From the NCBI GenBank assembly GCA_019358915.1, contig JAHHIM010000001.1, positions 96,001-160,000 on the forward strand: a DNA stretch of 64,000 bases. Direction: 5' to 3'. The notes under the pieces are model-generated. The model was not told the origin of the DNA and ran no database searches. It saw only the letters and a program-made list of their open reading frames with translations. A program made the position numbers and the translations under genes. This document shows, piece after piece, positions 19,555-41,151 of the stretch (within the stretch, counting starts at the first letter, position 1; every line of letters starts with the position of its first letter). The stretch comes from Trichormus sp. ATA11-4-KO1. Lineage in GTDB: Bacteria; Cyanobacteriota; Cyanobacteriia; Cyanobacteriales; Nostocaceae.

Positions 19555-20391
19555 ATGTGGTGTGGGTTTGGAAAATCCAGCATGATAATTGCTGTTAGCT
19601 GCTTAGTAACCACTACTGTGGTGGTTGCGGATACGACTTTTGCCGCTCGTCAACGTAACTATACGCCACAAGAGTTACGTACTGTGTTACGGGGCTTGGG
19701 CTATAACGTTAAAGTGACAAATGCACCCCTAACGGATGAAGAAACAAAAAAAGCCATCACTGAATTTCAAAGGGGTTACAAATTATCTGTTGATGGCATA
19801 GCAGGGCCAAAAACGCAAGATTTTGCTGCTAACATCGTCAAAATTCTGCAAGCCAATTTAAACGCGGTACTTAAACCTGATCCTCTTTTACCCCGTGATC
19901 AATTTTACGGGACTCGAACAGAAGAAGCTGTGAAGGTGGCTCAGAAAAAGTTTCAGATGGAAGAAACCGGCATTGCTAATTTAGCATTCCGCCAGAAGCT
20001 AAATGAAGAGGCAAAAAAAGTTATAGGTCAGCCTAGTACTGAGCTGACACCAACGCCAACGTCAACACCAACGCCGACACCGACACCGACACCAACGCCG
20101 ACACCGACACCAACGCCAACGCCGACACCGACACCAACGCCAACGCCAACGCCGACACCGACACCGACACCAACGCCGACACCGACACCGACACCAACGC
20201 CAACGCCAACGCCAACGCCAACGCCAACGCCGACACCGACACCGACACCAACGCCAACGCCAACGCCAACGCCAACGCCGACACCGACACCGACACCAAC
20301 GCCAACGCCAACGCCAACGCCAACGCCGACACCGACACCGACACCAACGCCAACGCCAACGCCAACGCCGACGCCAACGCCAACACCATAA
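19555..20391 (+). CDS. secreted peptidoglycan-binding protein with long Thr-Pro tail
   Basis: [25 protein letters not shown]-binding repeats; SD AAGGAG. Confidence 0.9.
20047..20388 (+). repeat. coding hexamer microsatellite (ACRCCR), about 57 TP units
   Basis: Direct reading of sequence and translation. Confidence 0.95.
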
Positions 20392-28718: not shown

Positions 28719-29585
28719 CTAACCCATAATTTCAATATCATACAACTCGCATAAGGTGCGGAGTTTTTGTTTCAGGCGATCGCGCAGACTCTCCGGCGCT
28801 ATCACTACACAATCGGGAGCATACTGCATAACTTCGCGGCTAAACCAAAAGCTACTTGATACACGTCTGATGACTCGGCGGACTCGCGGCTTATCTGGTA
28901 GCCATTCATTAATATTGTCTTCTGGTTTAGCTTGATACCCAAAAGCCAAGCCAGCAAATAAGTGCATTTCTACTTCTATTTCGTCTAATTGAGTCCGCCA
29001 CTCACCAGGAATAGAAAGCACAGCCGCCTCAGTAATTCTGTCTAAACGCAAACTCCAGTTGTGAATGAGTTCGGGAATATCAAAGTTTCCTTCTGTTTCT
29101 TCACACCAACAATCAAGATATTGCCGTTTTTCGTGCGGTTTCACTTTGGCGTGGCGCACTGTGAAATTTAATAAGCGTCCAGCTGCATCTTGATAAGAAA
29201 GCTGAAATGGTTGGTTTCGCAGAATGTAGTTATCTATCTGTAAGCGCCAAGTTGGGGGTAAATTTTCTAAGAAGCGTTCAATGTCGCTTCTCAGTGGTAT
29301 TGATAATTCGCTGCGTTCTAAAAGTAAGTTTGCAATAACTTGTGCTTGTTCGATTTGTCCAATGTCGGTTAATGCAGCAATACACCGATGTAATGCACGG
29401 ATACGGGTTTCTGACCAATTGTTATTGTTACCGATGAGTAACTTACGTTGGGCGATCGCTTCTACTAGCTTGGATATATTCGGGCGATCGCCCCACATCA
29501 TACCAAATTCTAAGGCGATCGCTTCTAATTCCGCTTTATCGCGTTCTGAAATAGAGAGAGTTATAGACTGACCTTTCCGACTCAT
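28719..29585 (-). CDS. CRISPR-associated WYL-domain transcriptional regulator
   Basis: Start MSRKGQSITLSIS (RHH-like); YLDCWC..HNWSLRLDRI WYL core; divergent from cas3'. Confidence 0.9.
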   Translation of the reverse strand: MSRKGQSITLSISERDKAELEAIALEFGMMWGDRPNISKLVEAIAQRKLLIGNNNNWSETRIRALHRCIAALTDIGQIEQAQVIANLLLERSELSIPLRSDIERFLENLPPTWRLQIDNYILRNQPFQLSYQDAAGRLLNFTVRHAKVKPHEKRQYLDCWCEETEGNFDIPELIHNWSLRLDRITEAAVLSIPGEWRTQLDEIEVEMHLFAGLAFGYQAKPEDNINEWLPDKPRVRRVIRRVSSSFWFSREVMQYAPDCVVIAPESLRDRLKQKLRTLCELYDIEIMG

Positions 29586-29590
29586 ATTTG

Positions 29591-29672
29591 TACGGACACT
29601 TTTATACGGATGTATATTGCCAACCTTTATTTTGCATGGCAATATAAGAAGTAACAACCAGTTACGGACACT
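29591..29672. promoter_or_regulatory. WYL/cas3 divergent promoter with operator-like repeats
   Basis: TACGGACACT at 29591 and 29663; 10-bp inverted repeat TATATTGCCA-N14-TGGCAATATA at 29613-29646. Confidence 0.6.
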
Positions 29673-29682
29673 ATTTAAGTGT

Positions 29683-31860
29683 ATGTCCGAAGAATACCAA
29701 ATTACACTCAAGCCTGTTTATTCACAAACCGTCCCCACACCTGACGGAGTGAAATTACCTAAAGATTGGTCACTTTCATGGCATCAATTAGCTACTTTAG
29801 AAGCTTTGCGCGATCCAAACATTGATGTAGTATTCAACACAGCCATGACAGGCGATGGTAAAAGCTTGGCTGCATATTTAGAAGTTCTCCAAGGTATATT
29901 TTCCGCTATTGGACTTTACCCAACTAATGAACTCGCTCGTGACCAAGAAACACAAATTAGAGGATATATTCAGCAATTTCAGCCGGAAGATGAGCCGCGT
30001 GTAGTTAGATTAAGTGGGGCTGATTTAGAAATTTATGCCGAAAATGAGGGGTTAAAAAAAGGGGCAGCAATTTCTACTCTCACTAGCCAAAGAGAGGCAT
30101 TATTAACTAACCCTGATATTTTTCACTATTTGCATCGAGGGGCTTATATAATTCGTGGCGATAGCCCAGACAAGTTATGGGGAAGAATCGATAAAGATTT
30201 TGACTTATTTATTTTTGATGAATTTCACGTTTTTGCTGCTCCCCAAATTGCCAGTGTAATTAACACAATGTTATTAATTCGTTGTACAAATCGCCGCAAA
30301 AAATTTCTGTTTCTCTCAGCCACACCAGATACAAATTTAATTAGCAGGTTCCAACAGGTAGGATTTCGTTGTCAAGTCATCAATCCCATTGCCCAAAATA
30401 AATATCAATTTCCTGAGACACCAGAACAAGGACAGCAACTGCAAACACAGGGCTGGCGAAAGGTAGCGCGAACAATTTCACTGAATTTTATTCCTCTAGA
30501 ACCTACTTTTAAAGCTTCGGAAACTTGGCTAAAAGAAAATAGTGATTTAATTTTGGCTCAATTTCAACAGTATCCAGGTAGTAAAGGAGCAATTATTCTC
30601 AATTCAATTGCCGCAGTCAAGCGTTTAAAGGTATTTTTTCAAGAAATTCTCCAGCCTTATGAATTAACAGTAGGAGAAAATACAGGGCTTTCTGGAAAAG
30701 GCATAAAAGAGCGAAGCCTTACGGCTGATTTAGTTATCGGCACTAGCACAATTGATGTGGGTGTTGATTTTAAAATCAATTTTCTAATTTTTGAGTCATC
30801 GGATGCAGGTAACTTTATTCAGCGTTTAGGGCGCTTAGGTAGACATGACGGCTATGAGAAAAATGGTCAAATAATTAAGTTTGAAAACTTTACAGCTTTT
30901 GCCCTTGTGCCTAACTTTTTAGTAGAACGTTTATTTCAGGTAGATGCACCACCATTAGAGGTAAATAGTATTTATGAGCGACCATCTTTTCACAATACAA
31001 TTAGCGAGAACTATCGACAAATTAATGATTTTCGCGGTTATTATCGCCGTTGGGGTGCTGTACAATCATTTTGGCTGTATTACAAATTGAGCGATCGCAC
31101 AATTAAACAACAGTATGCTCAAAGCCGAGAACAGTTTCAAAAAGCCTGTGAACAAGTATTTGAAAGCAAGCTGAATTCCATAGCCGGACGTGTTTCAGGA
31201 TGGGCGAAAGACTGGAAAGTACTATCAGGTAAATCAGGAAATCCCATCGCTGACGATGCGTCTAGTTTTCGCGGTTCTAGTCCTTTGCAATGCGGTTTAT
31301 ACGATTTAACCGAAGAGAACGAAGCCGACAGGTTTAAAACCTACGATTTACCAGGTATTTTGGGGAATTTAGAAATTGAAATGTGGACAGAGGCAGGATT
31401 TATACGGACACTTAAAGAAACCGCACAACGCACAGAACAACCCATAGCCAAAGGTAGATTTGCTCATTGTCTAGCATTTATGAAGTTGCGTTCCTACCGT
31501 GAGGAACGGCTGAACTGGAAGTTTACCTATGCTGGCGACTTACAGCTAATAGCTGATGCTTGGAAAGTTCAGGTTTTGACTGGTTTGGAAATTTGGCAAC
31601 CTGACAATCAATGGATTGGTGCAATTAACAAACGACTGAAGAAGGAAGGTTTGGTTTGTTACGTAATTCGCCGTCCTGTGTCTGAGGTGCGGATGCGGTT
31701 ACGGCTACCGATGCACTTTCAGATTTACCCCATTAGTGATCAGTATAGCTTTCATGATGTTAGTGCAAGCTGTGCGATCGCTTTTGGTCACTCTGCACTG
31801 CTGCTAGATACCCTCGCTTATACGTTTAAAAGCACAGGAGATGAGATATGGGTTGTTTAG
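29683..31860 (+). CDS. cas3: type I-D Cas3' helicase (no HD domain)
   Basis: AMTGDGKS Walker A, IFDEFH, SAT, QRLGRLGRH; start at MSEEYQITLK. Confidence 0.95.
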   Translation: MSEEYQITLKPVYSQTVPTPDGVKLPKDWSLSWHQLATLEALRDPNIDVVFNTAMTGDGKSLAAYLEVLQGIFSAIGLYPTNELARDQETQIRGYIQQFQPEDEPRVVRLSGADLEIYAENEGLKKGAAISTLTSQREALLTNPDIFHYLHRGAYIIRGDSPDKLWGRIDKDFDLFIFDEFHVFAAPQIASVINTMLLIRCTNRRKKFLFLSATPDTNLISRFQQVGFRCQVINPIAQNKYQFPETPEQGQQLQTQGWRKVARTISLNFIPLEPTFKASETWLKENSDLILAQFQQYPGSKGAIILNSIAAVKRLKVFFQEILQPYELTVGENTGLSGKGIKERSLTADLVIGTSTIDVGVDFKINFLIFESSDAGNFIQRLGRLGRHDGYEKNGQIIKFENFTAFALVPNFLVERLFQVDAPPLEVNSIYERPSFHNTISENYRQINDFRGYYRRWGAVQSFWLYYKLSDRTIKQQYAQSREQFQKACEQVFESKLNSIAGRVSGWAKDWKVLSGKSGNPIADDASSFRGSSPLQCGLYDLTEENEADRFKTYDLPGILGNLEIEMWTEAGFIRTLKETAQRTEQPIAKGRFAHCLAFMKLRSYREERLNWKFTYAGDLQLIADAWKVQVLTGLEIWQPDNQWIGAINKRLKKEGLVCYVIRRPVSEVRMRLRLPMHFQIYPISDQYSFHDVSASCAIAFGHSALLLDTLAYTFKSTGDEIWVV

Positions 31861-31861
31861 C

Positions 31862-31962
31862 GTTTCAATCCCTGATAGGGATTAATTTTGAGAAAAAGCT
31901 TACGGTTCTAAGCACAGACTTATTCGTTTCAATCCCTGATAGGGATTCATGAAGTTGTTATG
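31862..31962 (-). CRISPR. antisense mini-array: two 5'-degenerate repeats and one 27-nt spacer (crRNA-like regulatory RNA)
   Basis: AATCCCTATCAGGGATTGAAAC (3' 22-23 nt of the main repeat) ends at 31926 and 31862 on the minus strand; spacer GAATAAGTCTGTGCTTAGAACCGTAAG at 31925-31899. Confidence 0.92.
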
Positions 31963-31987
31963 TGCCTGTAAAGCTCTCTCACATAAG

Positions 31988-32017
31988 AGTATTCCATAAT
32001 CAGGTTGAATATGTCAA
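31988..32017 (-). promoter_or_regulatory. putative promoter of the mini-array
   Basis: TTGACA-N18-AATACT with TGn extension, about 25 nt upstream of the first pseudo-repeat. Confidence 0.45.
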
Positions 32018-32029
32018 TACTTAAAAATG

Positions 32030-32059
32030 GTTGAATAAGTCTGACCTTATAGCAATTTT
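32030..32059 (+). promoter_or_regulatory. PAM-flanked partial protospacer for the mini-array spacer
   Basis: GTT followed by GAATAAGTCTGaccttatagc: spacer positions 1-11, 14-17, 19 and 21 match. Confidence 0.8.
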
Positions 32060-32068
32060 AGAAATTGC

Positions 32069-32097
32069 TTGACAAGAGGTTTCGTTTTATGTAGCTT
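32069..32097 (+). promoter_or_regulatory. sigma70-type promoter for the wHTH gene and possibly the TA-cas operon
   Basis: TTGACA-N17-TAGCTT; SD AGGAG before the ATG at 32188. Confidence 0.7.
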
Positions 32098-32187
32098 CAG
32101 ATTATACAAATCAGTGAAGCTCAGAGATATAACAAGAATTTGGGCGGCTATAGCTGTATGTCAAAAGTTGTAAATTAGGAGAATACT

Positions 32188-32385
32188 ATGCTTGTCAAAT
32201 CGACAAACCTTGAGAAATTAATTGTACTTCTCAAGGATGGTAAATGGCATTCGAGCGATGAATTAGCAGCAAAGGTTAGTTTTCGATTTGGACACACTGT
32301 GTTTGAAGCTCGCAAGAAAGGCTACTTTGTTGAAACAAGGCAAGTTGCTCATAACCAATTTCAGTATCGGTTGTTAGCAGCGTAA
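32188..32385 (+). CDS. small winged-HTH protein (65 aa)
   Basis: LLKDGKWHSSDELA..ARKKGYFVET...YRL pattern of a HTH_11-like wHTH; strong SD. Confidence 0.8.
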   Translation: MLVKSTNLEKLIVLLKDGKWHSSDELAAKVSFRFGHTVFEARKKGYFVETRQVAHNQFQYRLLAA

Positions 32386-32403
32386 CCGATTCGATAGCTT
32401 ATC

Positions 32404-32604
32404 AGGGAATTTCTCTAGCTAAATTAGAGAATTCCCTTACAAGAGGGAAGCACAAGCTTGCGGTATTAAGCTCAGGCGTAAGCAGTCTTCATCCCCAACA
32501 GCTTGGCTGATGGTTGAGTAAGCCACTTAGAAGGCCACATCTTAAGACAGTAAGTTTTAGTCCAGCTTCCCTCTTTAGAAATTCTGCCACCAATGGTGGC
32601 AGAA
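32404..32604. other. structured non-coding segment (hairpin, 135-nt IR-closed domain, hairpin)
   Basis: Hairpin 32404-32437; AAGAGGGAAGC (32441) pairs with GCTTCCCTCTT (32575); hairpin TTCTGCCACC-AAT-GGTGGCAGAA 32582-32604. Confidence 0.55.
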
Positions 32605-32679
32605 ACTTGAATTAACATTGGAACTTACAAAATTAGTATCTAATTAATTAATTTATTCACCCAACTGGAGAATGAGCAA

Positions 32680-33132
32680 ATGCAAAATAATAACCCAACA
32701 ATTGCAGAACTTACAGAACTTTCCTTACAACTACCTGAAAAAATACCTTACTTAAAAATGTTAGTCCTCTTTGGTTCTAGAGCTACTGGTAATACACACG
32801 CAAATAGTGACTGGGATTTTGCTATTTTGTGTGATGAAGAACAGCGTCAGGCTTACACGGAAAATAATATTGGGGGTTTGTTTGAATTACCTATGCTGAT
32901 TGGCGAAGTATTGAAAATTAATTCTGACCATATTGATATTGTACAACTTAATCATTGTTCCGAATTAATAGCACATTTTGTTGCTCGTGATGGTCAGGTT
33001 TTATATGAGGATGAGGTGAAAGAATTTGATAAATTTAAACAAAAAGTATTACTGAGTAATTCAGACATCAAAAAAATTGAACATACTAAACGCAAAAATA
33101 TTGAACAGTTTCTAGCAAGATGGGGTGTATGA
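32680..33132 (+). CDS. mntA: MNT minimal nucleotidyltransferase antitoxin
   Basis: LFGSRATG...SDWDFA (GSx10DxD) and IDIV. Confidence 0.92.
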   Translation: MQNNNPTIAELTELSLQLPEKIPYLKMLVLFGSRATGNTHANSDWDFAILCDEEQRQAYTENNIGGLFELPMLIGEVLKINSDHIDIVQLNHCSELIAHFVARDGQVLYEDEVKEFDKFKQKVLLSNSDIKKIEHTKRKNIEQFLARWGV

Positions 33133-33572
33133 AAAATATAGATACTGTAATTATTTCAACTCGATTAGAGTTTATTGTTCGTTACCTTGAGAATTTGAAG
33201 AGATTCGAGGCGATTAGTTGGGATGATTACGTAAATAGCTTTGATACTCAACTAATTATTGAAAGGCTTCTACAATTAATGACTCAAGCGGCGATAGATA
33301 TCAACGACCATATATTGTCAAAGCTAAATCCTGGAAAGTCGCCAACTAACTTTGAGGCTTTTATTGAAATTGGTAAATATGGTGTCATTTCAACCGAATT
33401 AGCAGCACAATTGGCACCATCAGGAGGATTAAGAAATCGGCTGGTTCATGAATATGACGATATAGATCCAACAGAAGTTTTTAAAGCAATTAGTTTCGCG
33501 TTACAACAATATCCGCTTTACGTGCGGCAAATAAATACTTATTTAATTTCATTGGATGTAGATAATGACTAA
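33129..33572 (+). CDS. hepT: HEPN (DUF86) RNase toxin
   Basis: RNRLVHEY (RX4H plus Tyr); ATGA overlap with the MNT stop. Confidence 0.92.
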   Translation: MKNIDTVIISTRLEFIVRYLENLKRFEAISWDDYVNSFDTQLIIERLLQLMTQAAIDINDHILSKLNPGKSPTNFEAFIEIGKYGVISTELAAQLAPSGGLRNRLVHEYDDIDPTEVFKAISFALQQYPLYVRQINTYLISLDVDND

Positions 33573-36500
33573 AGAAACAAACCCCAAGGAAGAAAATCAA
33601 CAAGTATCTTTGTTTGAAAATAATACTGAAGAAGCGGAAGAATTAGAAGATAATTTCTTAAATCAAGACTTTGGCTTTGATGGTGATTCTTCAGACCGTA
33701 CTATTGAAACTGAAGGCGAATTACTCACACTCAAACTATTGCGAGAGGCAATTCAGGCGCAAAATGCTGATGATCAAGTAATGGCAGATTTTGCCGAGTA
33801 TGTTTTACCAAACTTGCTACGAATAGCCCTTGGTGTCACGGCTAAAGGAGGTAAATTTTTTGATGAAATTGACCAACAACGAGAAGCAGAAGGTAAAACT
33901 AAAGTTAGGCGAGATAATGCAGCTGATCAATCTCTAAATACTCACTTACTCAACGGTTTATTTCCCGCTAACTTAATTGAAAAGCGTTTAGAAAAACTCA
34001 ATACCACAGTGCGGCGAGTGGTGAAAGAAAGAGAACGCCGATTAGTAATTGCTGGGTTTATTTTACATGATTTTGAAAAATTTCCTGATGCACCAGAAGA
34101 TTGTCGTAAGTTACCGTTAGCAGAACATCGTCAAATTATTGATCAAAAAGTTCGCCAGTTAGGACTTGATAAGTTTATTAACCCAGATAATTCAGAAGCT
34201 TATCTGGAGTATTTAGATGATTTGTTGTGCATGGCTTATAATGCTCAACGACGCTGGGATACTAACTGGAATTTTTCGGAATTTGGCTTAAATCCTGTTT
34301 TGAAAGACCGCACCCTTCGCAGTCTGTCTGATTTAACTTGTTTGGCTGATTCTCTCGCCTCAATTGTTAAGCATCCCCAAGATGCAGAAAATACCAGACT
34401 CCAAGAAATTATCCATAATCTGAGTGATGGACAGTTGAAATTTACCTATCACAGCATTGCTGAAAATAGGGGTGTTTTAACTAATGTAGTGAATAATGCT
34501 TTAATTCAGACTCATACCAGTCTCAACACTGATGAAAATATCTACTATGAACCTTTGTTATATCTGCCAACAGGTGTAATTTATCTGGCTTTGCGTAATG
34601 CGCCGCCTATTGCACAAGAAGACTTATCAGACCGTGTAGTTGATAGTATTAAATCACTTTGTGCAGGTCAATTGCGTCTCAGACAAACAGGATTTGGTAG
34701 AGATGGCAAAGGTATGAAATATGCCGAATATTACAATTTATTTTTTGATGACTTAGGTTTAATGCGAGTAGCGTTAGATGCTACATTACGTGTATTAAAT
34801 TCTAATAAGCCTTCGGTTGCTCAAAGTCGTAGTGAAAATCTGATTAAATTTCAGCAACGAAAGGTTTTATCTGCTGATTATGACTTTAAATTTGCAGATG
34901 ATATCCGCATCGACCAAATAGCAGAATTTGGTGATTTAATTAGTAGGAAGATTTGGGAAGAGACTGTTAATCGCATTGACTCTGCTAGGAAGCAAGATAA
35001 AAAACTACCAGCAGTCCCAGATTTAGATTTAACTCACAAAATTGCAGAGTTTTGGAATTTATCAGCATATTTACCCCCAATTCGAGAAATTCAACGCATT
35101 AATGAAAGTCTCAAAGAAAATAAGTTAAAAGGAAATACTGGCGGAGTACCTTATGAATGGTATTACCTTGCGGCTAAATATCTGGAACGTCATCCTGGTA
35201 TTGAAAATGTCCGCGACTCTTGTCAGCAAGTCATCGATTACTTAACAACTTTGATTTCGCCGATTATTTCTCAGTACAACTTACCTGATGGCTGGGATGA
35301 TTTAAGGCTGTGGGTAAATCGCGTTGTGATGTTACCAAATACAAATCAAGAATTAGCAACTGAAACTCAAATTCAAACATTTTTAGATGAGCTAAGTAAC
35401 TACAATGCTGCCAAAAAACCAGGACGAGGACGGCAACTCATTTGCTCAATTTCTCACTCAGCTTACACTGTAACTGAGCAAATGGAATCAGCAGTTTTAT
35501 TTACGCCGCAAGTTTATACAAATAAGCAAATGTTAGGAGGTTCCAATGCCAAGCGTAACATCTCCAGTATTGCTGGTGTGGAGATGATGTTGAGGCAAAT
35601 ATTGATGAATCAAACTCAAGCAGTTGGTAAACGATTTGAAGATGGCAAATATCGCTATCTCTATTTTTACCCTACTTATTACTTCACACCAGAAACTAAT
35701 AAGTTTTTGCAGAAAGCTTACAACGGCATTGCTCAAACTCGCTTTGATACAAGCGTCCGTAATCATTTCATTAGTAAGGATTTACAGGCAAATTTAGCCA
35801 GAGAAAATTATCAAAGTGTAGATAGTTTCTTAATTGACGAAAATCTCCAGGCTGATAAAGACCGCACATTTAAGCTTTCTTATCCTGAAGACCAGCCTTT
35901 AACATTTTACTTCATGGCACTGCCACCAGGAAGAGACAGCACAGATACAGAATCTTGGGTAATGCCTAGTTGGTTAGCCTTTGCTTTCCCGATGATTTTA
36001 GACGTGAAAACAGTGGTTTCTGAGTCGCCAATTCCACCTTTTAATGATGGTTCTGAGTTTGAGGAAAGCGTTTTCTTAGATAGTGCGCCTCATGCTTTCC
36101 GTGCATTGGTAAGACGAGACAGATTTCGTCTTGACTACATCCTTGAAGGTTGGCAAGAAAACGGTATTCAATACCCTGCACCGTTGAATGTGCTTACAGC
36201 CGCCTACGCCATTCACTTAGATGTGAATGCTAGACAAGGTAAAACTGGTTACGATGCCAACTGGGGTAGATTCACAGAACTAGCAAAGGATTTTGAAACC
36301 AGTCCTTTGTACGTTTTCGCTTATCTCAATCGTTGGGTGCGTAACCAAGGAGTGGAAACAGCGCGAATCGAAAAAGTTAGGCTTTATGTCTATCATTTTT
36401 ACCCTTGTTTTGACCCCTATGTTAAATATGAAAAAAATATGGAGCAATTAATTGTGGGAGAAGAATCACACCTGAATCATCCAAAAATTTTAACAGATTT

Positions 36501-36903
36501 ATACCGCCGATTTTATCGGGCAAATAAGCGTTATAATCCCAAATCTAATGCTGTTTTAAAACCCATTGATATTGCAGCCGAAACTATTCTTAAAGCTGAA
36601 TCAAGTGTATTTCAAGGAGAAACATTAGTGGCGGCTGTAGCTGCGGAAGTCTTTAAACTCATGGATCGCGTTCATTCTTCTACTGCTGAGGGACGTTGGG
36701 TAATGAGTAAACGTGAAGAAGAACGGCAAGCTGTTTTAGAGTTTGCTAAATATTTTGTACAGGAGGTATTTGAGAAATCATTTGCAGGCGATCGCGCTCG
36801 TTTAGCAGGTCGCCAACTTAACTTAATTCGAGATACTTGTGAATTTCTTTATCGGCTTGAAGATGACAAAGAAAACGCAGAAAAAGTTGTAGAAACCGAA
36901 TAA
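33565..36903 (+). CDS. cas10d: type I-D large subunit Cas10d/Csc3 with N-terminal HD nuclease
   Basis: DQSLNTHLLNG..ILHDFEK HD motif; 1112 aa; operon context. Confidence 0.95.
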   Translation: MTKETNPKEENQQVSLFENNTEEAEELEDNFLNQDFGFDGDSSDRTIETEGELLTLKLLREAIQAQNADDQVMADFAEYVLPNLLRIALGVTAKGGKFFDEIDQQREAEGKTKVRRDNAADQSLNTHLLNGLFPANLIEKRLEKLNTTVRRVVKERERRLVIAGFILHDFEKFPDAPEDCRKLPLAEHRQIIDQKVRQLGLDKFINPDNSEAYLEYLDDLLCMAYNAQRRWDTNWNFSEFGLNPVLKDRTLRSLSDLTCLADSLASIVKHPQDAENTRLQEIIHNLSDGQLKFTYHSIAENRGVLTNVVNNALIQTHTSLNTDENIYYEPLLYLPTGVIYLALRNAPPIAQEDLSDRVVDSIKSLCAGQLRLRQTGFGRDGKGMKYAEYYNLFFDDLGLMRVALDATLRVLNSNKPSVAQSRSENLIKFQQRKVLSADYDFKFADDIRIDQIAEFGDLISRKIWEETVNRIDSARKQDKKLPAVPDLDLTHKIAEFWNLSAYLPPIREIQRINESLKENKLKGNTGGVPYEWYYLAAKYLERHPGIENVRDSCQQVIDYLTTLISPIISQYNLPDGWDDLRLWVNRVVMLPNTNQELATETQIQTFLDELSNYNAAKKPGRGRQLICSISHSAYTVTEQMESAVLFTPQVYTNKQMLGGSNAKRNISSIAGVEMMLRQILMNQTQAVGKRFEDGKYRYLYFYPTYYFTPETNKFLQKAYNGIAQTRFDTSVRNHFISKDLQANLARENYQSVDSFLIDENLQADKDRTFKLSYPEDQPLTFYFMALPPGRDSTDTESWVMPSWLAFAFPMILDVKTVVSESPIPPFNDGSEFEESVFLDSAPHAFRALVRRDRFRLDYILEGWQENGIQYPAPLNVLTAAYAIHLDVNARQGKTGYDANWGRFTELAKDFETSPLYVFAYLNRWVRNQGVETARIEKVRLYVYHFYPCFDPYVKYEKNMEQLIVGEESHLNHPKILTDLYRRFYRANKRYNPKSNAVLKPIDIAAETILKAESSVFQGETLVAAVAAEVFKLMDRVHSSTAEGRWVMSKREEERQAVLEFAKYFVQEVFEKSFAGDRARLAGRQLNLIRDTCEFLYRLEDDKENAEKVVETE
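36454..36903 (+). CDS. cas11d: Cas11d small subunit from internal translation start (149 aa)
   Basis: In-frame GTG 9 nt after GGAG, just before LTDLYRRFYR; internal Cas11d translation is established for type I-D. Confidence 0.6.
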   Translation: MGEESHLNHPKILTDLYRRFYRANKRYNPKSNAVLKPIDIAAETILKAESSVFQGETLVAAVAAEVFKLMDRVHSSTAEGRWVMSKREEERQAVLEFAKYFVQEVFEKSFAGDRARLAGRQLNLIRDTCEFLYRLEDDKENAEKVVETE

Positions 36904-36962
36904 GTAAATCTTTTATTTTGGTAAACGCAAACCAATAGTAAATCATTCATTGGAGACTAATT

Positions 36963-37973
36963 ATGTCATTTCTCAAAACAGTTGAATCCAAATTTTTTCA
37001 ATCTAAAATTCCCTACAAACCAATGGGTAAATATGTCCATTTTATCACTGTACGCATCACTGAATCTTATCCTCTATTTCAAACAGATGGAGAATTAAAT
37101 AAAGCCAGAGTGAGGGCTGGAGTTCAAGACAAAGCAACAATTAGCCGTTTGTCAATGTTTAAGCGCAAACAGTCTACACCAGAGCGTTTAGTTGGTCGGG
37201 AATTGTTGCGTAACTATGGCTTGATGACTGCGGAAGAATGCGAATATAATGTCAATTTTGCCATGGATAATCCTGATTGTATTATTTACGGTTTTGCTAT
37301 TGGTGATTCTGGTTCGGAAAAATCTAAGGTTGTAGTAGACACCGCATTTTCAATTACCGCTTTTGACGAATCACACGAAACTTTCACTCTTAACGCTCCC
37401 TATGAGAATGGCACAATGGCTTCTAAGGGTGAAAATGGTTCTAAACCTGGTGAAGTTACCAGTCGCATTAATCAGCAAGACCATATTAGACCACAAGTTT
37501 TCTTCCCTAGTATTGTTACCCTCAAAGACCCCACTGAAGCTAGCTTCCTTTACGTTTTTAATAATATCCTCAGAACGCGCCACTATGGAGCGCAAACTAC
37601 CCGTACAGGTCGTGTGAGAAATGAGTTAATTGGTGTTGTATTTGCAGATGGAGAAATTACTAGTAACCTGCGTTGGACTCAAGCAATATATGACCAAATG
37701 AAGGCACAAAAGACAATCAATCCTCCTGATCCTTTGGATGAAGATGATGTAATTACTGCTGCTAAAGGTGCAATTGAGGCTTTAATGGCTGATGAGTTTA
37801 TTGTGCATACTGATTTCATCGGTGAAGCTTTTTCACCTCTGCTGCATGAAGTTAAGAGCCTCGTAGGTGACGAAACAGGAATTAAGGCAGTTTTAGAAAA
37901 AGCTGATGCAGAGGCTAAAGATTATGCCAATACACATATTAGCAAAAAGAAAACTGCTGCTAAGGCTAAGTAA
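36963..37973 (+). CDS. csc2: Cas7/Csc2 backbone subunit
   Basis: FKRKQSTPERLVGRELLR, PDCIIYGFAIG, YGAQTTRTG. Confidence 0.95.
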   Translation: MSFLKTVESKFFQSKIPYKPMGKYVHFITVRITESYPLFQTDGELNKARVRAGVQDKATISRLSMFKRKQSTPERLVGRELLRNYGLMTAEECEYNVNFAMDNPDCIIYGFAIGDSGSEKSKVVVDTAFSITAFDESHETFTLNAPYENGTMASKGENGSKPGEVTSRINQQDHIRPQVFFPSIVTLKDPTEASFLYVFNNILRTRHYGAQTTRTGRVRNELIGVVFADGEITSNLRWTQAIYDQMKAQKTINPPDPLDEDDVITAAKGAIEALMADEFIVHTDFIGEAFSPLLHEVKSLVGDETGIKAVLEKADAEAKDYANTHISKKKTAAKAK

Positions 37974-37978
37974 CAGCT

Positions 37979-38686
37979 ATGGCTATGATCTACCGATGTC
38001 AATTAGAACTACATGACAGCCTATATTTTGCTACTCGTGAAATCGGGCGACTTTACGAAACAGAGCCAGTAATTCATAATTATGCTCTCTGTTATGCACT
38101 CGGTTTAGTTGATAGCGAAGTCTACTCTACTATAGTGGCTGAAGAACATTCCTATCGCTATTTTTGCCCTGAACAAGTGCCAAAATATGAGGAGCATTTA
38201 ACACCACTCAATCAACAGGGAATTTACATTACTCCGGCTCGTTCTATCAAACATTCAGCCATTCTCAATACCTGGAAGTATGCTAACAATAACTACCATG
38301 TTGAAATGGAGAAAACACAGAAGAATATTCCTAGCTTTGGTAGAGCAAAAGAAATAGCACCAGAAAGTCAATTTGAGTTTTTCGTTATTTCTCAAAAAGA
38401 CATCAAACTACCAAAGTGGATTCGCTTGGGTAAATGGATGAGTAAGGCTGAGGTGACAGTTACAGAATTGCCGAAACCTAAAACTAATGGAGGAATCTTC
38501 ACCTGTAAACATCCCTTAAACCCTTTAGATGTGATGTTCACTCATCAAGTGATTAGTTACGATGTAGTGAATATGCCTCCAGTTAGTCTAATTCAAAATG
38601 TGCAAATTAGAGGAGAATATTACCAGTTTGATGCTTTAAAAGACTTAAAAATTCCAGCGAGAATGGAATACCGTTTTCGTAGTTAA
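37979..38686 (+). CDS. csc1: Cas5/Csc1
   Basis: LHDSLYFATRE, HNYALCYALG, WIRLGKWMSK. Confidence 0.95.
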   Translation: MAMIYRCQLELHDSLYFATREIGRLYETEPVIHNYALCYALGLVDSEVYSTIVAEEHSYRYFCPEQVPKYEEHLTPLNQQGIYITPARSIKHSAILNTWKYANNNYHVEMEKTQKNIPSFGRAKEIAPESQFEFFVISQKDIKLPKWIRLGKWMSKAEVTVTELPKPKTNGGIFTCKHPLNPLDVMFTHQVISYDVVNMPPVSLIQNVQIRGEYYQFDALKDLKIPARMEYRFRS

Positions 38687-38718
38687 TTACAATTGCTAGA
38701 TTACTCCCCACATCCATC

Positions 38719-39330
38719 GTGAAATACTATCAACAACAACCCAACGCCTTCCCCAGCGACTACTTAAATAACTTGTGGGGAGTAATCCAGGCTTGTCCTT
38801 ACTTTGCTACCAACAACCTTAACCGTGATTTTGTCGCCACTAAAGGATTTTCTGTTGTATTCAAACGATCGCACATCCCCACAGTAGAACAAAAATTCCC
38901 TTACTTCAAGCCATACCTAGATTTAGCTCTCCAAGAGAGTTGTAATGCTTTTTACCTCAATCCTTTACAGCTAAAAGAAGGTTCCCGTGTAGATCCGCAC
39001 ATTGATCGCTCTTTGCGTTCTTACTGCAAAACGGTTGAACCGCCTGCGGTTGTCAGTGTTCTGTATGTGCGATTACCAGAGAATATGGAAGGGGGAGAAC
39101 TACTACTCAAGTCGCACAAACGCCAACTTGGGGAAATTAAGCCACAAGTAAATACATTACTCTACTTTCAAGGTGATTTAACCCACTCCGTCAACGCCGT
39201 GAAAACACCAGGAAATCGCCTGAGTTTGGTTTGTGAACAGTATAGTTTAAGTAATGCTGAACTCGCAGAAATACCAGAGTTTACCATCGAATCAAGAATT
39301 GCTCAATCTACAACAAAAAAACGCAAGTAA
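38719..39330 (+). CDS. 2OG-Fe(II) oxygenase inside the cas operon
   Basis: PHID, GGELLL, LTHSV, RLSLV (HxD...H...RxS). Confidence 0.88.
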   Translation: MKYYQQQPNAFPSDYLNNLWGVIQACPYFATNNLNRDFVATKGFSVVFKRSHIPTVEQKFPYFKPYLDLALQESCNAFYLNPLQLKEGSRVDPHIDRSLRSYCKTVEPPAVVSVLYVRLPENMEGGELLLKSHKRQLGEIKPQVNTLLYFQGDLTHSVNAVKTPGNRLSLVCEQYSLSNAELAEIPEFTIESRIAQSTTKKRK

Positions 39331-39360
39331 TTTCTTGAATTTTTAATTTTTAATTGTTAT

Positions 39361-40200
39361 ATGCCTCATAGCCTTATTCTTAACTTACTCCCTCAGTCGC
39401 CTATTCCATCCCAATATCTCACAGGCAGACATCTACACGCTTTATTTTTAACTCTTGTCAGTTCCGTAGATCGAAAATTAGGCGATCGCTTGCATGATGC
39501 TACCGCAGACAAAGCTTTCACCCTCTCTCCCCTACAAATTAGTAGCGCTAACTCTCCCCTTTTGAAGGGGGGTAGGGGGGGATGTAAACTACAACACTCA
39601 CATCAGCAACCCATTCCAGTCGGAACGCCTTGTTGGTGGCGCATCTCCCTATTAGATGACACACTCTTTAGCCAACTTACCCAACTGTGGCTCAATCTTA
39701 ACCCTAATCATCCTTGGCATCTTGGCCCGGCTGACTTGTATATTACCAGCATTCAAGGTACACCCCAATCTACTCAACCTTGGGCAAATGCCTGTAGCTA
39801 TGCTCAATTATACGAACAAGCCAGCGATCGCGATCGCACAATTGACCTTATATTCTCCACTCCCACTGCCTTCCGCCAAGGAAAATTTGACACTACTCTT
39901 CCCACTAGAGAATGTGTTTTTAATTCTCTAGTTTCCCGATGGAATAAATACAGTGGTATGGAATTTGACCACATTGCTATTGAGTCAATATTTCCCTCTT
40001 TCATCAACATACATACAGAAATATTAGCCGACTCTCGCAGCAAATTTATTGGCATTATCGGAGAAGTTAGTTATCGGATTTTAGGAGAAATTGAACCAAT
40101 ACAAATTAAGCAAATTAATGCTTTAGCTGACTTTGTTTTATATGCAGGAATTGGACGAAAAACCACAATGGGTATGGGGATGGTGCGACGGCGACATTAA
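39361..40200 (+). CDS. cas6: Cas6 crRNA endoribonuclease
   Basis: GRHLHALF, FTLSPL, C-terminal G-loop YAGIGRKTTMGMG. Confidence 0.96.
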   Translation: MPHSLILNLLPQSPIPSQYLTGRHLHALFLTLVSSVDRKLGDRLHDATADKAFTLSPLQISSANSPLLKGGRGGCKLQHSHQQPIPVGTPCWWRISLLDDTLFSQLTQLWLNLNPNHPWHLGPADLYITSIQGTPQSTQPWANACSYAQLYEQASDRDRTIDLIFSTPTAFRQGKFDTTLPTRECVFNSLVSRWNKYSGMEFDHIAIESIFPSFINIHTEILADSRSKFIGIIGEVSYRILGEIEPIQIKQINALADFVLYAGIGRKTTMGMGMVRRRH

Positions 40201-40229
40201 CCACAACTTCAACTCAATTATGCAAAATA

Positions 40230-40361
40230 CTGACTAAATTTAAGCATCCCGTCATGCAAAAACAACATACCTATCAAGAATCATTTGAAATTCAAGGCCG
40301 TCTGCTAGCTAAATATCTCATGGGAGAAATTGACAAATATCCCCCATTAGTCATGAAATAA
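40230..40361 (+). pseudogene. cas1: 3' remnant of cas1 (cas4 and most of cas1 deleted)
   Basis: Frame LTKFKHPVMQKQHTYQESFEIQGRLLAKYLMGEIDKYPPLVMK* resembles cyanobacterial I-D Cas1 C-termini and sits directly before cas2. Confidence 0.85.
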
Positions 40362-40373
40362 TTAGTCAATTCT

Positions 40374-40646
40374 ATGTTTTTAGTAATTTCCTACGATATA
40401 TCCGAAGACAAGCGCCGCACCAAAATTCACAAAATTCTCAAATCTTACGGACAGTGGATGCAGTATTCCGTATTTGAGTGCGACCTCACCCAGACTCAGT
40501 ATGCTAAACTGCGATCGCGCTTGTCTAAAGTCATCAAACCAGACCAAGACAGCATCCGGTTTTATTTCCTCTGCGCTTGCTGTCAGGGAAAAGTTGAGCG
40601 CATTGGTGGTGAAATGCCAATCAACACCACAGTATTTTTTGCCTGA
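40374..40646 (+). CDS. cas2: Cas2
   Basis: VISYDISEDKRR..YGQWMQYSVFEC. Confidence 0.97.
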   Translation: MFLVISYDISEDKRRTKIHKILKSYGQWMQYSVFECDLTQTQYAKLRSRLSKVIKPDQDSIRFYFLCACCQGKVERIGGEMPINTTVFFA

Positions 40647-40899
40647 GTTTAGCGTCAACCAGTAGGTGTTTTACAAAAAAGTTGAGATTTTGCATCTCAA
40701 AAGCTTATCCCATCTGGGTTTTAACCCTCTAATACCAATATTAAGATTGACGCTAACTAACTAAACCGTTGCTGTAAATGCCTTTGAGGTAATTTTCTCA
40801 AATGTCACTCTTGACAACCCAATGCCTGAAAAGTTATCTTAGGCTGTAATTGACGAAACTGTACCTTGAAAATCAAATATACCAATGCTTTCAGATGCG
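40647..40899 (+). promoter_or_regulatory. CRISPR leader
   Basis: AT-rich; GCGTCAA...TTGACGC inverted motif; TTGACA(40811)-N18-TATCTT promoter candidate. Confidence 0.7.
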
Positions 40900-41151
40900 G
40901 TTCCAATTACTAATAATCCCTATCAGGGATTGAAACCAGACTTTTTATCGGGTTTGGGGGTAGAACCTGTGTTCCAATTACTAATAATCCCTATCAGGGA
41001 TTGAAACTTCAGCAAAAAAGTTATTTTAAAAGCGCTAAGAGACAGTTCCAATTACTAATAATCCTTATCAGGGATTGAAACGATTTTGGACAATTCCCAT
41101 GTCTAGCAGTTTTTGTTCCAATTACTAATAATCCTTATCAGGGATTGAAAC
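40900..41151 (+). CRISPR. type I-D array, 4 repeats and 3 spacers
   Basis: 37-nt repeat GTTCCAATTACTAATAATCC(C/T)TATCAGGGATTGAAAC at 40900, 40971, 41045, 41115; spacers 34, 37 and 33 nt. Confidence 0.98.

Follow-up and report, generated by a model that had tools for sequence, protein, structure and literature searches.

The locus and its antisense mini-array

This report concerns a degenerate, one-spacer CRISPR mini-array on the minus strand of a type I-D CRISPR–Cas locus, found in a stretch of 64,000 nucleotides (nt) of Trichormus sp. ATA11-4-KO1, an organism whose own genome comprises 5,970,731 bases (the whole stretch is called the window below, and coordinates are positions in it). Read along the window, the locus holds a WYL/WCX regulator gene on the minus strand, cas3', the mini-array, an open reading frame (ORF) for 65 amino acids (orf65), the genes for MNT and HepT, cas10d, csc2, csc1, a 2OG-Fe(II) oxygenase gene, cas6, cas2 and an array of four repeats. 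Assignment to type I-D follows from matches to TIGR03174 (1234 bits, cas10d), TIGR03159 (276 bits) and Pfam Csc2 (412 bits), together with Cas6 and the DEAD/Cas3 C-terminal domain.

The mini-array consists of two repeat-like sequences around a single spacer, right behind cas3' and 9 kb from the main array (40900..41151, plus strand, behind cas2; repeat GTTCCAATTACTAATAATCCCTATCAGGGATTGAAAC). The stop codon of cas3' is a TAG at 31858-31860, and one base past it stands GTTTCAATCCCTGATAGGGATT on the plus strand (31862-31883), with a second copy 64 nt on (31926-31947). Read as reverse complement, both copies are identical to the final 22 nt of the main repeat, its hairpin AATCCCT-ATC-AGGGATT plus GAAAC, and the 15 nt on the 5' side of either core have diverged from the main repeat. 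A preliminary description of this DNA had reported two pseudo-repeats 1 bp past the cas3' stop, with hairpin and repeat end intact and the 5' parts diverged; with 22 of 22 nt identical in both copies, it was accurate. The core pattern has six matches in the window against none in 100 shuffles, and the Rfam family CRISPR-DR5 matches both copies on the minus strand, with 34.8 and 32.6 bits (E 0.005 and 0.016), which lies under its gathering score of 40.

Taken in the direction of the presumed RNA, the distal pseudo-repeat (31926..31962, minus strand) comes 5' and would supply the 8-nt handle ATTGAAAC, which is kept in relatives. It is followed by the guide of the putative CRISPR RNA (crRNA)-like RNA (31897..31925, minus strand, position 1 being 31925) and, on the 3' side, by the proximal pseudo-repeat (31862..31898, minus strand), which has the hairpin and ATTGAAAC as in the main repeat and a diverged 15 nt at its 5' end. 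The parts of a repeat that serve processing and loading, namely hairpin and 5' handle, are therefore kept at the level of sequence. The piece between the two copies begins GAATAAGTCTGTGC on the minus strand. The conserved, periodically constrained part of the guide measures 29 nt; the spacer was first given as 27 nt (31899-31925), as against 33-37 nt in the main array, and the periods of that array (71, 74 and 70) do correspond to spacers of 34, 37 and 33 nt.

Elsewhere in the organism's own genome, and remote from the listed arrays, solitary matches to the repeat core with one mismatch occur at 28341-28362 of contig C14 and 33690-33711 of contig C22; these may be lone repeat units or additional mini-arrays.

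Predicted back-to-back promoters and two partial targets

Upstream of orf65 lies the promoter TTGACA-N17-TAGCTT on the plus strand (32069..32097, with TTGACA at 32069-32074 and TAGCTT at 32092-97), read from the sequence and conserved in relatives. The mini-array has a promoter-like site of its own on the minus strand (31988..32017), which a consensus scan scored at 10 of 12 bases: TTGACA (32017-32012), 18 nt and AATACT (31993-31988), with TG before the -10.

The guide finds a partial match at each of them. Target site 1 (32030..32059, plus strand) has a GTT protospacer-adjacent motif (PAM) at 32030-32 and a protospacer from 32033, and here GAATAAGTCTG directly follows GTT. Guide positions 1-11, 14-17, 19 and 21 match, which amounts to 17 of 21 over 32033-32053 and bears out the match to this site, after GTT and upstream of TTGACA-N17-TAGCTT, that the preliminary description had listed. 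Held against a threshold of at least 10 seed nucleotides next to the PAM of the subtype at a promoter, the site offers a seed of 11 nt, GTT and a start 36 nt before the -35. GTN followed by guide positions 1-11 (position 6 left free) occurs at a single site in the whole genome, with 0.83 expected, and that site is 70 nt from the mini-array; none of 500 shuffled guides attained the observed seed within 200 nt. Target site 2 (32004..32033, plus strand) has GTT at 32004-06 and a protospacer from 32007, with matches at guide positions 1-5 and 7-9; the preliminary description had not named it. The site shares bases with the -35 of the mini-array promoter, its GTCAA being the TTGAC of the minus-strand promoter-like site. 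The region reads as two back-to-back promoters with a protospacer at each -35.

Conservation of the module among relatives

Two sets of loci were compared. The first was assembled with Cas3', for which 31 of 61 related genomes gave a match with E <= 1e-50; the C-terminus could be placed in 28 loci. In 22 of these 28, a repeat core follows the cas3' stop at a distance of no more than 170 nt, mostly 3-6 nt, and 15 loci have two copies. Position and hairpin of the mini-array are kept between genera, between families and more widely still. Several classes of guide occur, and the usual arrangement is a seed match flanked by GTT or GTC, 40-125 nt past the distal repeat. Guides of 27 nt or more are present in 19 loci, and in 13 of these no more than one of 500 shuffled guides did as well as the best seed with a GT PAM within 200 nt.

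The guide class GAATA.GTCTG coincides with orf65, which is present in 10 of 21 sources, and what lies between the module and cas10d varies: DUF433 with the PIN-like DUF5615, YhcG-type nucleases, or MNT-HepT. In six relatives there is no such cargo, orf65 being followed directly by cas10d, and the module is present there without a toxin-antitoxin (TA) gene.

The second set comprised the best 30 orf65 loci. A repeat core lies upstream of orf65 in 25 of them, and 22 have two copies, about 255 and about 325 nt before the start codon. The distal copy retains the handle as ATTGAAA plus C, T, A or G, and the proximal copy is often hairpin only; keeping the handle in the distal copy matches what a crRNA-like product of the minus strand would require. 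With a GT PAM and a seed of at least 9 demanded, 33 sites were found from 20 of the 25 loci. A search that left the PAM free and allowed at most one mismatch in guide positions 1-9 returned 38 sites, of which 37 are preceded by GTN (31 GTT, five GTC and one GTA); the lone exception belongs to a locus with a mis-assigned 'guide'. The I-D PAM is GTN/GTH according to the sections consulted of PMC8216271 and PMC10212523, and the GTN seen at the target in the window is a regular feature of near-seed matches in relatives, even when no PAM is asked for.

In the PAM-free search, position 6 takes 15 of the 19 single mismatches. Guides that deviate from the commonest sequence at position 1, 7 or 8 have targets with the same change: GT at 7-8 becomes TT, CC or GC, and G at position 1 becomes A. 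This is the covariation of spacer and target that the preliminary description had proposed to look for in homologous I-D loci. Its tabulation demanded a seed match, and the unbiased evidence is the PAM-free search together with individual cases. For example, one locus pairs the guide GAATAGTTC with two GTT-GAATAGTTC sites, another the guide GAATAACCC with two GTT-GAATAACCC sites, and an unrelated guide, AGTGCCGCGATCGAG, faces GTC-AGTGCTGCGATAGAG with mismatches at 6 and 12 only.

The promoters are kept as well. TTGACA-N17-TAnnnT is conserved in an alignment of 10 loci and is present in 15 of 18 loci with a plus-strand site; in 12 it begins 23-36 nt past the start of the nearest protospacer, and in the remaining three, because the site nearest the promoter is weakened, 51-52 nt past it. 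A footprint of 27-36 nt thus abuts or covers the -35. On the minus strand, closer relatives have TTGACN, with a -10 that ends 40-46 nt before the repeat core.

Several relatives show the module altered or replaced. G029 (L041, 300-460) keeps the whole mini-array and guide, lacks target and orf65, and runs into a truncated YhcG nuclease gene. G050 (L048, 300-470) has a deletion with ends in the guide region and in its downstream paralogue, copy B (described below); seed, distal repeat, promoters and orf65 are gone. A second class of mini-array after cas3' (L040, L046 and L049, from G016, G021 and G048; 300-620) has the handle ATTGAAAT, guides starting TTCC or TTCG, imperfect targets flanked by GTC and its own full-length guide copy downstream; a small unknown ORF, DUF433 and YhcG cargo follow, and there is no orf65.

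The gene behind the targeted promoter

The gene orf65 (32188..32385, plus strand) had been labelled a winged helix-turn-helix (wHTH) gene in the preliminary description, and the predicted fold agrees. The AlphaFold2 (AF2) model, with a pLDDT of 88.5, has three helices and a two-stranded wing (H-H-H-E-E), and the best Foldseek matches are HlyU, SqrR, NolR and wHTH proteins of the ArsR/MarR type (TM 0.6-0.7, probability 0.96-1.0, E only 0.02-0.1). The product can be taken as a predicted winged helix, and 'wHTH' is a reasonable label for it. No family for it was found in Pfam, NCBIfam or PHROGs (best PHROG E 0.19), and no related sequence among solved structures (best E 0.31). The 60 homologues are cyanobacterial, and the family occurs in 70 of 401 genomes, and 44 of 143 genera, of the order searched. 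Remoter homologues (L073, L082-L084 and L087; 40-61% identity, in frames of 74-214 amino acids) stand without an upstream repeat hairpin, so the protein family is not limited to the mini-array context.

Past the orf65 stop there is a hairpin (GGGAATTTCTCTA ... TAGAGAATTCCC; 32405..32436, plus strand) that varies in sequence among relatives; compared with G001, the closest relative of the window, two of its stem bases are changed in concert. It has no U-tract after it, and it could be a terminator or a processing site.

A proposed circuit and how it compares with other explanations

The mini-array is a real and conserved element and very probably a functional one. Our preferred reading, to which we give a probability of roughly 0.8, is that a degenerate mini-CRISPR with one spacer and a promoter of its own occupies minus-strand 31862-31962, and that its guide RNA would have I-D Cascade repress the wHTH promoter and the mini-array itself. 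Cutting at both intact hairpins by the I-D Cas6 would turn the transcript into a crRNA-like RNA that carries ATTGAAAC as its 5' handle, followed by a guide beginning GAATAAGTCTG. Loaded into I-D Cascade (Cas10d, Csc2 and Csc1), this RNA would recognise the two GTT-flanked partial matches in the divergent promoter region, of which site 1 (32033-) ends beside the -35 of the wHTH promoter and site 2 (32007-) sits on that of the mini-array promoter. With only the seed and a few further bases paired, Cascade would bind without cleavage by Cas3' or Cas10d, and RNA polymerase would be blocked. The outcome would be negative feedback, in which abundant Cascade holds down the wHTH gene and the mini-array, and scarce or inhibited Cascade releases them. 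What the sequences show directly is anatomy, conservation, PAM, seed pattern and covariation; transcription, processing, binding, repression and read-through are steps that we infer from the sequence, and repression of the mini-array's own promoter through site 2 is likewise one that we infer from position alone.

How far the control reaches depends on what the wHTH promoter drives. The genes that would be read through from it, MNT-HepT and cas10d-csc2-csc1-cas6, would very probably be held down likewise. A simple scan found no terminator-like site in 31500-33800, and a simple consensus scan found no promoter-like site between orf65 and cas10d in five of the six cargo-less relatives; these two absences make the targeted promoter probably the effector promoter, and the RNA probably an autoregulator of the CreR type. 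The preliminary description had placed cas10d only 'possibly' under this promoter, a suggestion that the cargo-less relatives strengthen.

A number of observations weigh against this reading. The effect on cas10d rests on the absence of matches to simple promoter and terminator models. The TAGCTT -10 of the wHTH promoter is weak (three of six consensus bases) and was not listed by the simple consensus promoter scan, and the 27-nt protospacer at site 1 stops 9 bp short of the -35, so that occlusion would require the footprint of the whole complex. Of the mismatches at site 1, those at 12 and 18 had been ascribed to the sixth positions that are flipped out in Cascade; in relatives mismatches cluster at position 6, and the window also has mismatches at 13 and 20, beyond the flipped positions. 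Among relatives, no mini-array was found at five of the 30 orf65 loci, four of the 19 loci of the first set (L011, L012, L020 and L028) have no convincing PAM-seed target, and L027 has lost the first 9 nt of its guide, which belong to the seed. The loci share ancestry, and the counts are of cells and not of independent events. Finally, the only RNA run matched was one metatranscriptome (0.05 of words), which gave three partly divergent contigs over 31592-31852 of 31400-32800, that is, over the 3' end of a related cas3', and left the mini-array uncovered, so that it speaks neither for nor against the reading.

The same guide mechanism could serve another purpose. In an addiction or anti-anti-CRISPR module like CreTA, the repressed promoter would drive something harmful (the wHTH protein, a structured RNA or HepT), and loss or inhibition of Cascade would arrest the cell. 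Shmakov et al. (PMC10120712, in the sections consulted) propose this for I-D cargo, mini-array and target promoter are divergent here as in CreTA, and TA cargo does lie downstream, namely MNT-HepT in the window and DUF433/PIN-like genes or a YhcG nuclease in relatives. We nevertheless think it unlikely: the modelled orf65 product folds as an ordinary small wHTH with no pointer to toxicity, six relatives have the module with orf65 and then cas10d and no TA gene, and MNT-HepT has a promoter-like site of its own (TTAACA-16-TAGTAT at 32612-32639, ahead of MNT).

Two further explanations would dispense with the guide RNA altogether. The motif GTTGAATA.GTC might serve as operator for a DNA-binding protein, such as the wHTH itself, with the 'guide' a third copy that arose by duplication; two co-oriented copies 26 bp apart before a regulator gene would suit an operator, and parts of the region do exist as paralogous copies with visible gene conversion. 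Such an account has little to say about why GTN precedes the sites whereas AAC, the repeat end, precedes the guide at every locus, or why mismatches cluster at position 6 (at 6 and 12 with the unrelated guide), which is the signature of Cas7-bound guides rather than of an operator bound by a protein. Unrelated guides with other downstream genes also have PAM-flanked matches, moreover, and the handle is conserved solely in the repeat that would supply it, which makes the operator a very improbable explanation. Still less credible is a decaying remnant of an inverted CRISPR array, or a pair of hairpins terminating cas3', with the promoter match arising by chance. The first hairpin does lie 1 bp past the stop and is followed by AATTTT on the plus strand, and the locus has neither cas1 nor cas4 and an array of only four repeats; the terminator scan, however, listed nothing here, the match is unique in the genome and adjoins the mini-array, shuffled guides fail to reach it, and at least 44 genera with orf65 have retained the element together with its orientation, PAM and seed, with covariation.

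A structured element and a possible RNA target

About 70 nt past the orf65 stop, all 10 orf65 loci of the first set have a highly conserved stretch, which in the window is a structured element at 32441..32575 (entered on the plus strand, the strand not being settled) with the outer stem AAGAGGGAAGC / GCTTCCCTCTT. The enclosing complementary arms vary by genome (AAGAGGGAAGC, AAGAGGAAAGC, TGGAGAGGATAA, CAGAGAGAGAAGC and others). In the second set the core of the element recurs at 20 of the 30 loci, and the organism's own genome has it once. An initial alignment (A2) misaligned the outer arms, and RNAalifold gave inner hairpins only; the sequences were re-cut at the arms (A3). In the alignment of 20 sequences, 91.6% of cells pair, as against 39-56% with partners slid, a percentage that is inflated in that 13 of the 20 were chosen for exact arms of at least 9 nt; 10 pairs are changed on both sides, and none of 500 shuffles reached the observed values. 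The ratio of G-U to A-C cells favours the plus strand in helix P2 (36:3) and in a 4-bp hairpin (23:1), is 19:17 in the outer stem, and leans slightly to the minus strand in a further helix (7:10). A search of 31000-34000 against Rfam, with E up to 1, gave no match on the element, the only matches being the two repeats and a chance psbNH. In cargo-less relatives the element stands immediately ahead of cas10d.

Inside the element is copy B (32455..32483, listed on the plus strand), a 29-nt hairpin region that is a paralogue of the guide region. It has the same orientation on the DNA as the guide region, and a plus-strand RNA would therefore be complementary to the guide; the plus strand is so at guide positions 1 and 4-29, and a GTN PAM is absent. 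When guide and copy B are compared over 22 loci, they differ in 71 of the 88 cells for positions 6, 12, 18 and 24, as against 56 of 484 at the other positions from 4 to 29, and 32 of those 56 differences would form G-U pairs. Guide positions 2 and 3 never match in these loci, and the flank is never GTN. In the guide itself, all four bases occur at the sixth positions, and their neighbours are nearly invariant. Past about position 19 the promoter DNA sites match the guide at chance level only, and they cannot, on that ground, explain the conservation of guide positions 20-29. L040 and L049, whose guides belong to the other class, have their own downstream copy, in which 21 and 22 of 25 non-sixth positions match and nine of 10 sixth positions differ (the sixth positions having been read by eye from the strings).

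We raise, tentatively and with more doubt than belief, the idea that the guide may have two kinds of target, PAM-flanked DNA sites matched through the seed only and the PAM-less copy B in its own operon transcript, which the complex would bind. Such binding could provide a second layer of autorepression at the post-transcriptional level, hold the complex at the nascent transcript or work as a sponge. In vitro, I-D Cascade binds complementary single-stranded RNA at about 11 nM regardless of the flank, according to the parts consulted of Schwartz et al. 2022 (PMC9123187), and PMC10212523, in the sections consulted, counts among the open questions whether the binding of single-stranded nucleic acids by I-D Cascade has a function in the cell, a question for which copy B would be a concrete candidate. 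Gene conversion between guide and copy B has occurred in some lineages, where 25 and 24 of 30 positions are identical, sixth positions included, and similarity between them is accordingly no proof of pairing. Two orf65 loci with a mini-array lack copy B, which weighs against a simple pairing reading. We also considered copy B as a second guide gene on the minus strand; its sixth positions vary less than the guide's do, as would rather be expected of a target. If the complex does bind copy B, this would be the first RNA target known in nature for a type I system.

As a separate observation, GTT-GAGTAAGCCACTTAGAAGG at 32510-32535, within the structured element, resembles the guide and target sites, but with seed changes and a 3-nt gap, and the relative G033 has CTT-GAATAAGTCACTTAAAAA at the equivalent place. 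It may be a third site, either decayed or read differently.

Relation to known systems

The novelty of the mini-array was overrated in the preliminary description. Shmakov et al. 2023 (PMC10120712; the statements here rest on the sections consulted) had already described repeat-like sequences beside cas3 in I-D. By their count, 15% of 128 I-D loci have a mini-array, with transcription running against that of cas3 and PAM-flanked partial targets at promoters, and in two Cas3 clades the space between mini-array and cas10d is taken up by cargo such as TA genes and transcriptional regulators. The element in the window is like theirs in having two repeat-like sequences right after cas3, a predicted transcription in the opposite direction and the better-kept repeat beside the seed. 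It is like theirs, too, in a partial match that spans 10 nt or more, has the cognate PAM and lies at the promoter of TA or regulator cargo upstream of cas10d, and in a position that is conserved as the cargo varies. Their I-D cases are computational only, as is ours. Those sections mention neither a second site on the mini-array's own promoter nor a PAM-less, full-length partner of the guide, and as far as they show, the second site and the periodic, PAM-less partner are what is new here.

CreR, a Cas-regulating RNA, offers a parallel with bench evidence, which the consulted parts of the preprint of Liu et al. (10.1101/2023.03.10.532045) give for I-B, I-E and V-A, adding that creA-like elements were found by hand for I-D too (Fig. 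S7). Common to both are a degenerate mini-CRISPR and a partial match with the right PAM beside the -35, which for CreR is at a cas promoter and results in autorepression of the effector. The first gene behind the promoter here is the wHTH gene and not a cas gene, so that control of cas10d would come by read-through; moreover, CreR has been tested at the bench, whereas the present mini-array is known from its sequence. CreTA, a CRISPR-repressed toxin with the antitoxin RNA CreA, and CrePA (10.1101/2024.01.05.574328) share with it a crRNA-like RNA that silences a divergent promoter through a match of seed length, with TA genes nearby (a silencing that is predicted here); unlike in those systems, no toxin has been identified under the targeted promoter, and the module also occurs without TA genes. 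The PAM-independent binding of single-stranded RNA described by Schwartz et al. is what copy B would need, though the target there was artificial and fully matched, and no natural RNA target of I-D Cascade is named in the consulted parts of that paper. The literature searched yielded no bench test of an I-D mini-array, and the term 'I-D' is absent from the main text of the 2026 preprint version on phage crRNA-like RNAs (crlRNAs).

In our view the locus is a widely conserved and clean example of what would be CRISPR self-regulation by a crRNA-like RNA in I-D, a hybrid of types I and III for which such self-regulation has so far only been predicted in the literature searched. Natural variants are at hand in the covarying guides and targets, the one locus without the seed and the loci without a target. 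Should the second site on the mini-array's promoter prove true, the circuit would be doubly autoregulated.

Other genes and features of the region

The cas3' helicase gene (29617..31860, plus strand) matches Pfam DEAD and Cas3-like_C_2 and has orthologues in relatives; its annotated TTG start is probably too early, matches in relatives beginning at about residue 20. Divergent from it is the WYL/WCX-domain regulator gene (28719..29711, minus strand; Pfam WCX, E 3.6e-8), and regulators of the Sll7009 type are described in PMC10212523 (sections consulted). The MNT-HepT pair, a TA cargo by its Pfam matches, occupies 32680..33572 on the plus strand (MNT at 32680-33132 and HepT at 33120-33572), and the genes for effector and processing, cas10d, csc2, csc1, the 2OG-Fe(II) oxygenase, cas6 and cas2, extend over 33565..40646 on the same strand, with Pfam and NCBIfam matches. 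The gene of the 2OG-Fe(II) oxygenase family (38719-39330; Pfam E 7e-8) is placed within the effector operon, between csc1 and cas6.

Neither cas1 nor cas4 was found within the I-D locus, in which cas2 is present (39361-41151 being the stretch of cas2 and the array), and cas1 matches occur at the ends of two other contigs of the organism's own genome (C52 and C68). The last two repeats of the main array have a C>T change in the hairpin. Well away from the locus, at 20047-20388, the window holds a tandem hexamer, CCAACG, in 56 copies, which can alternatively be described with a period of 54 nt.

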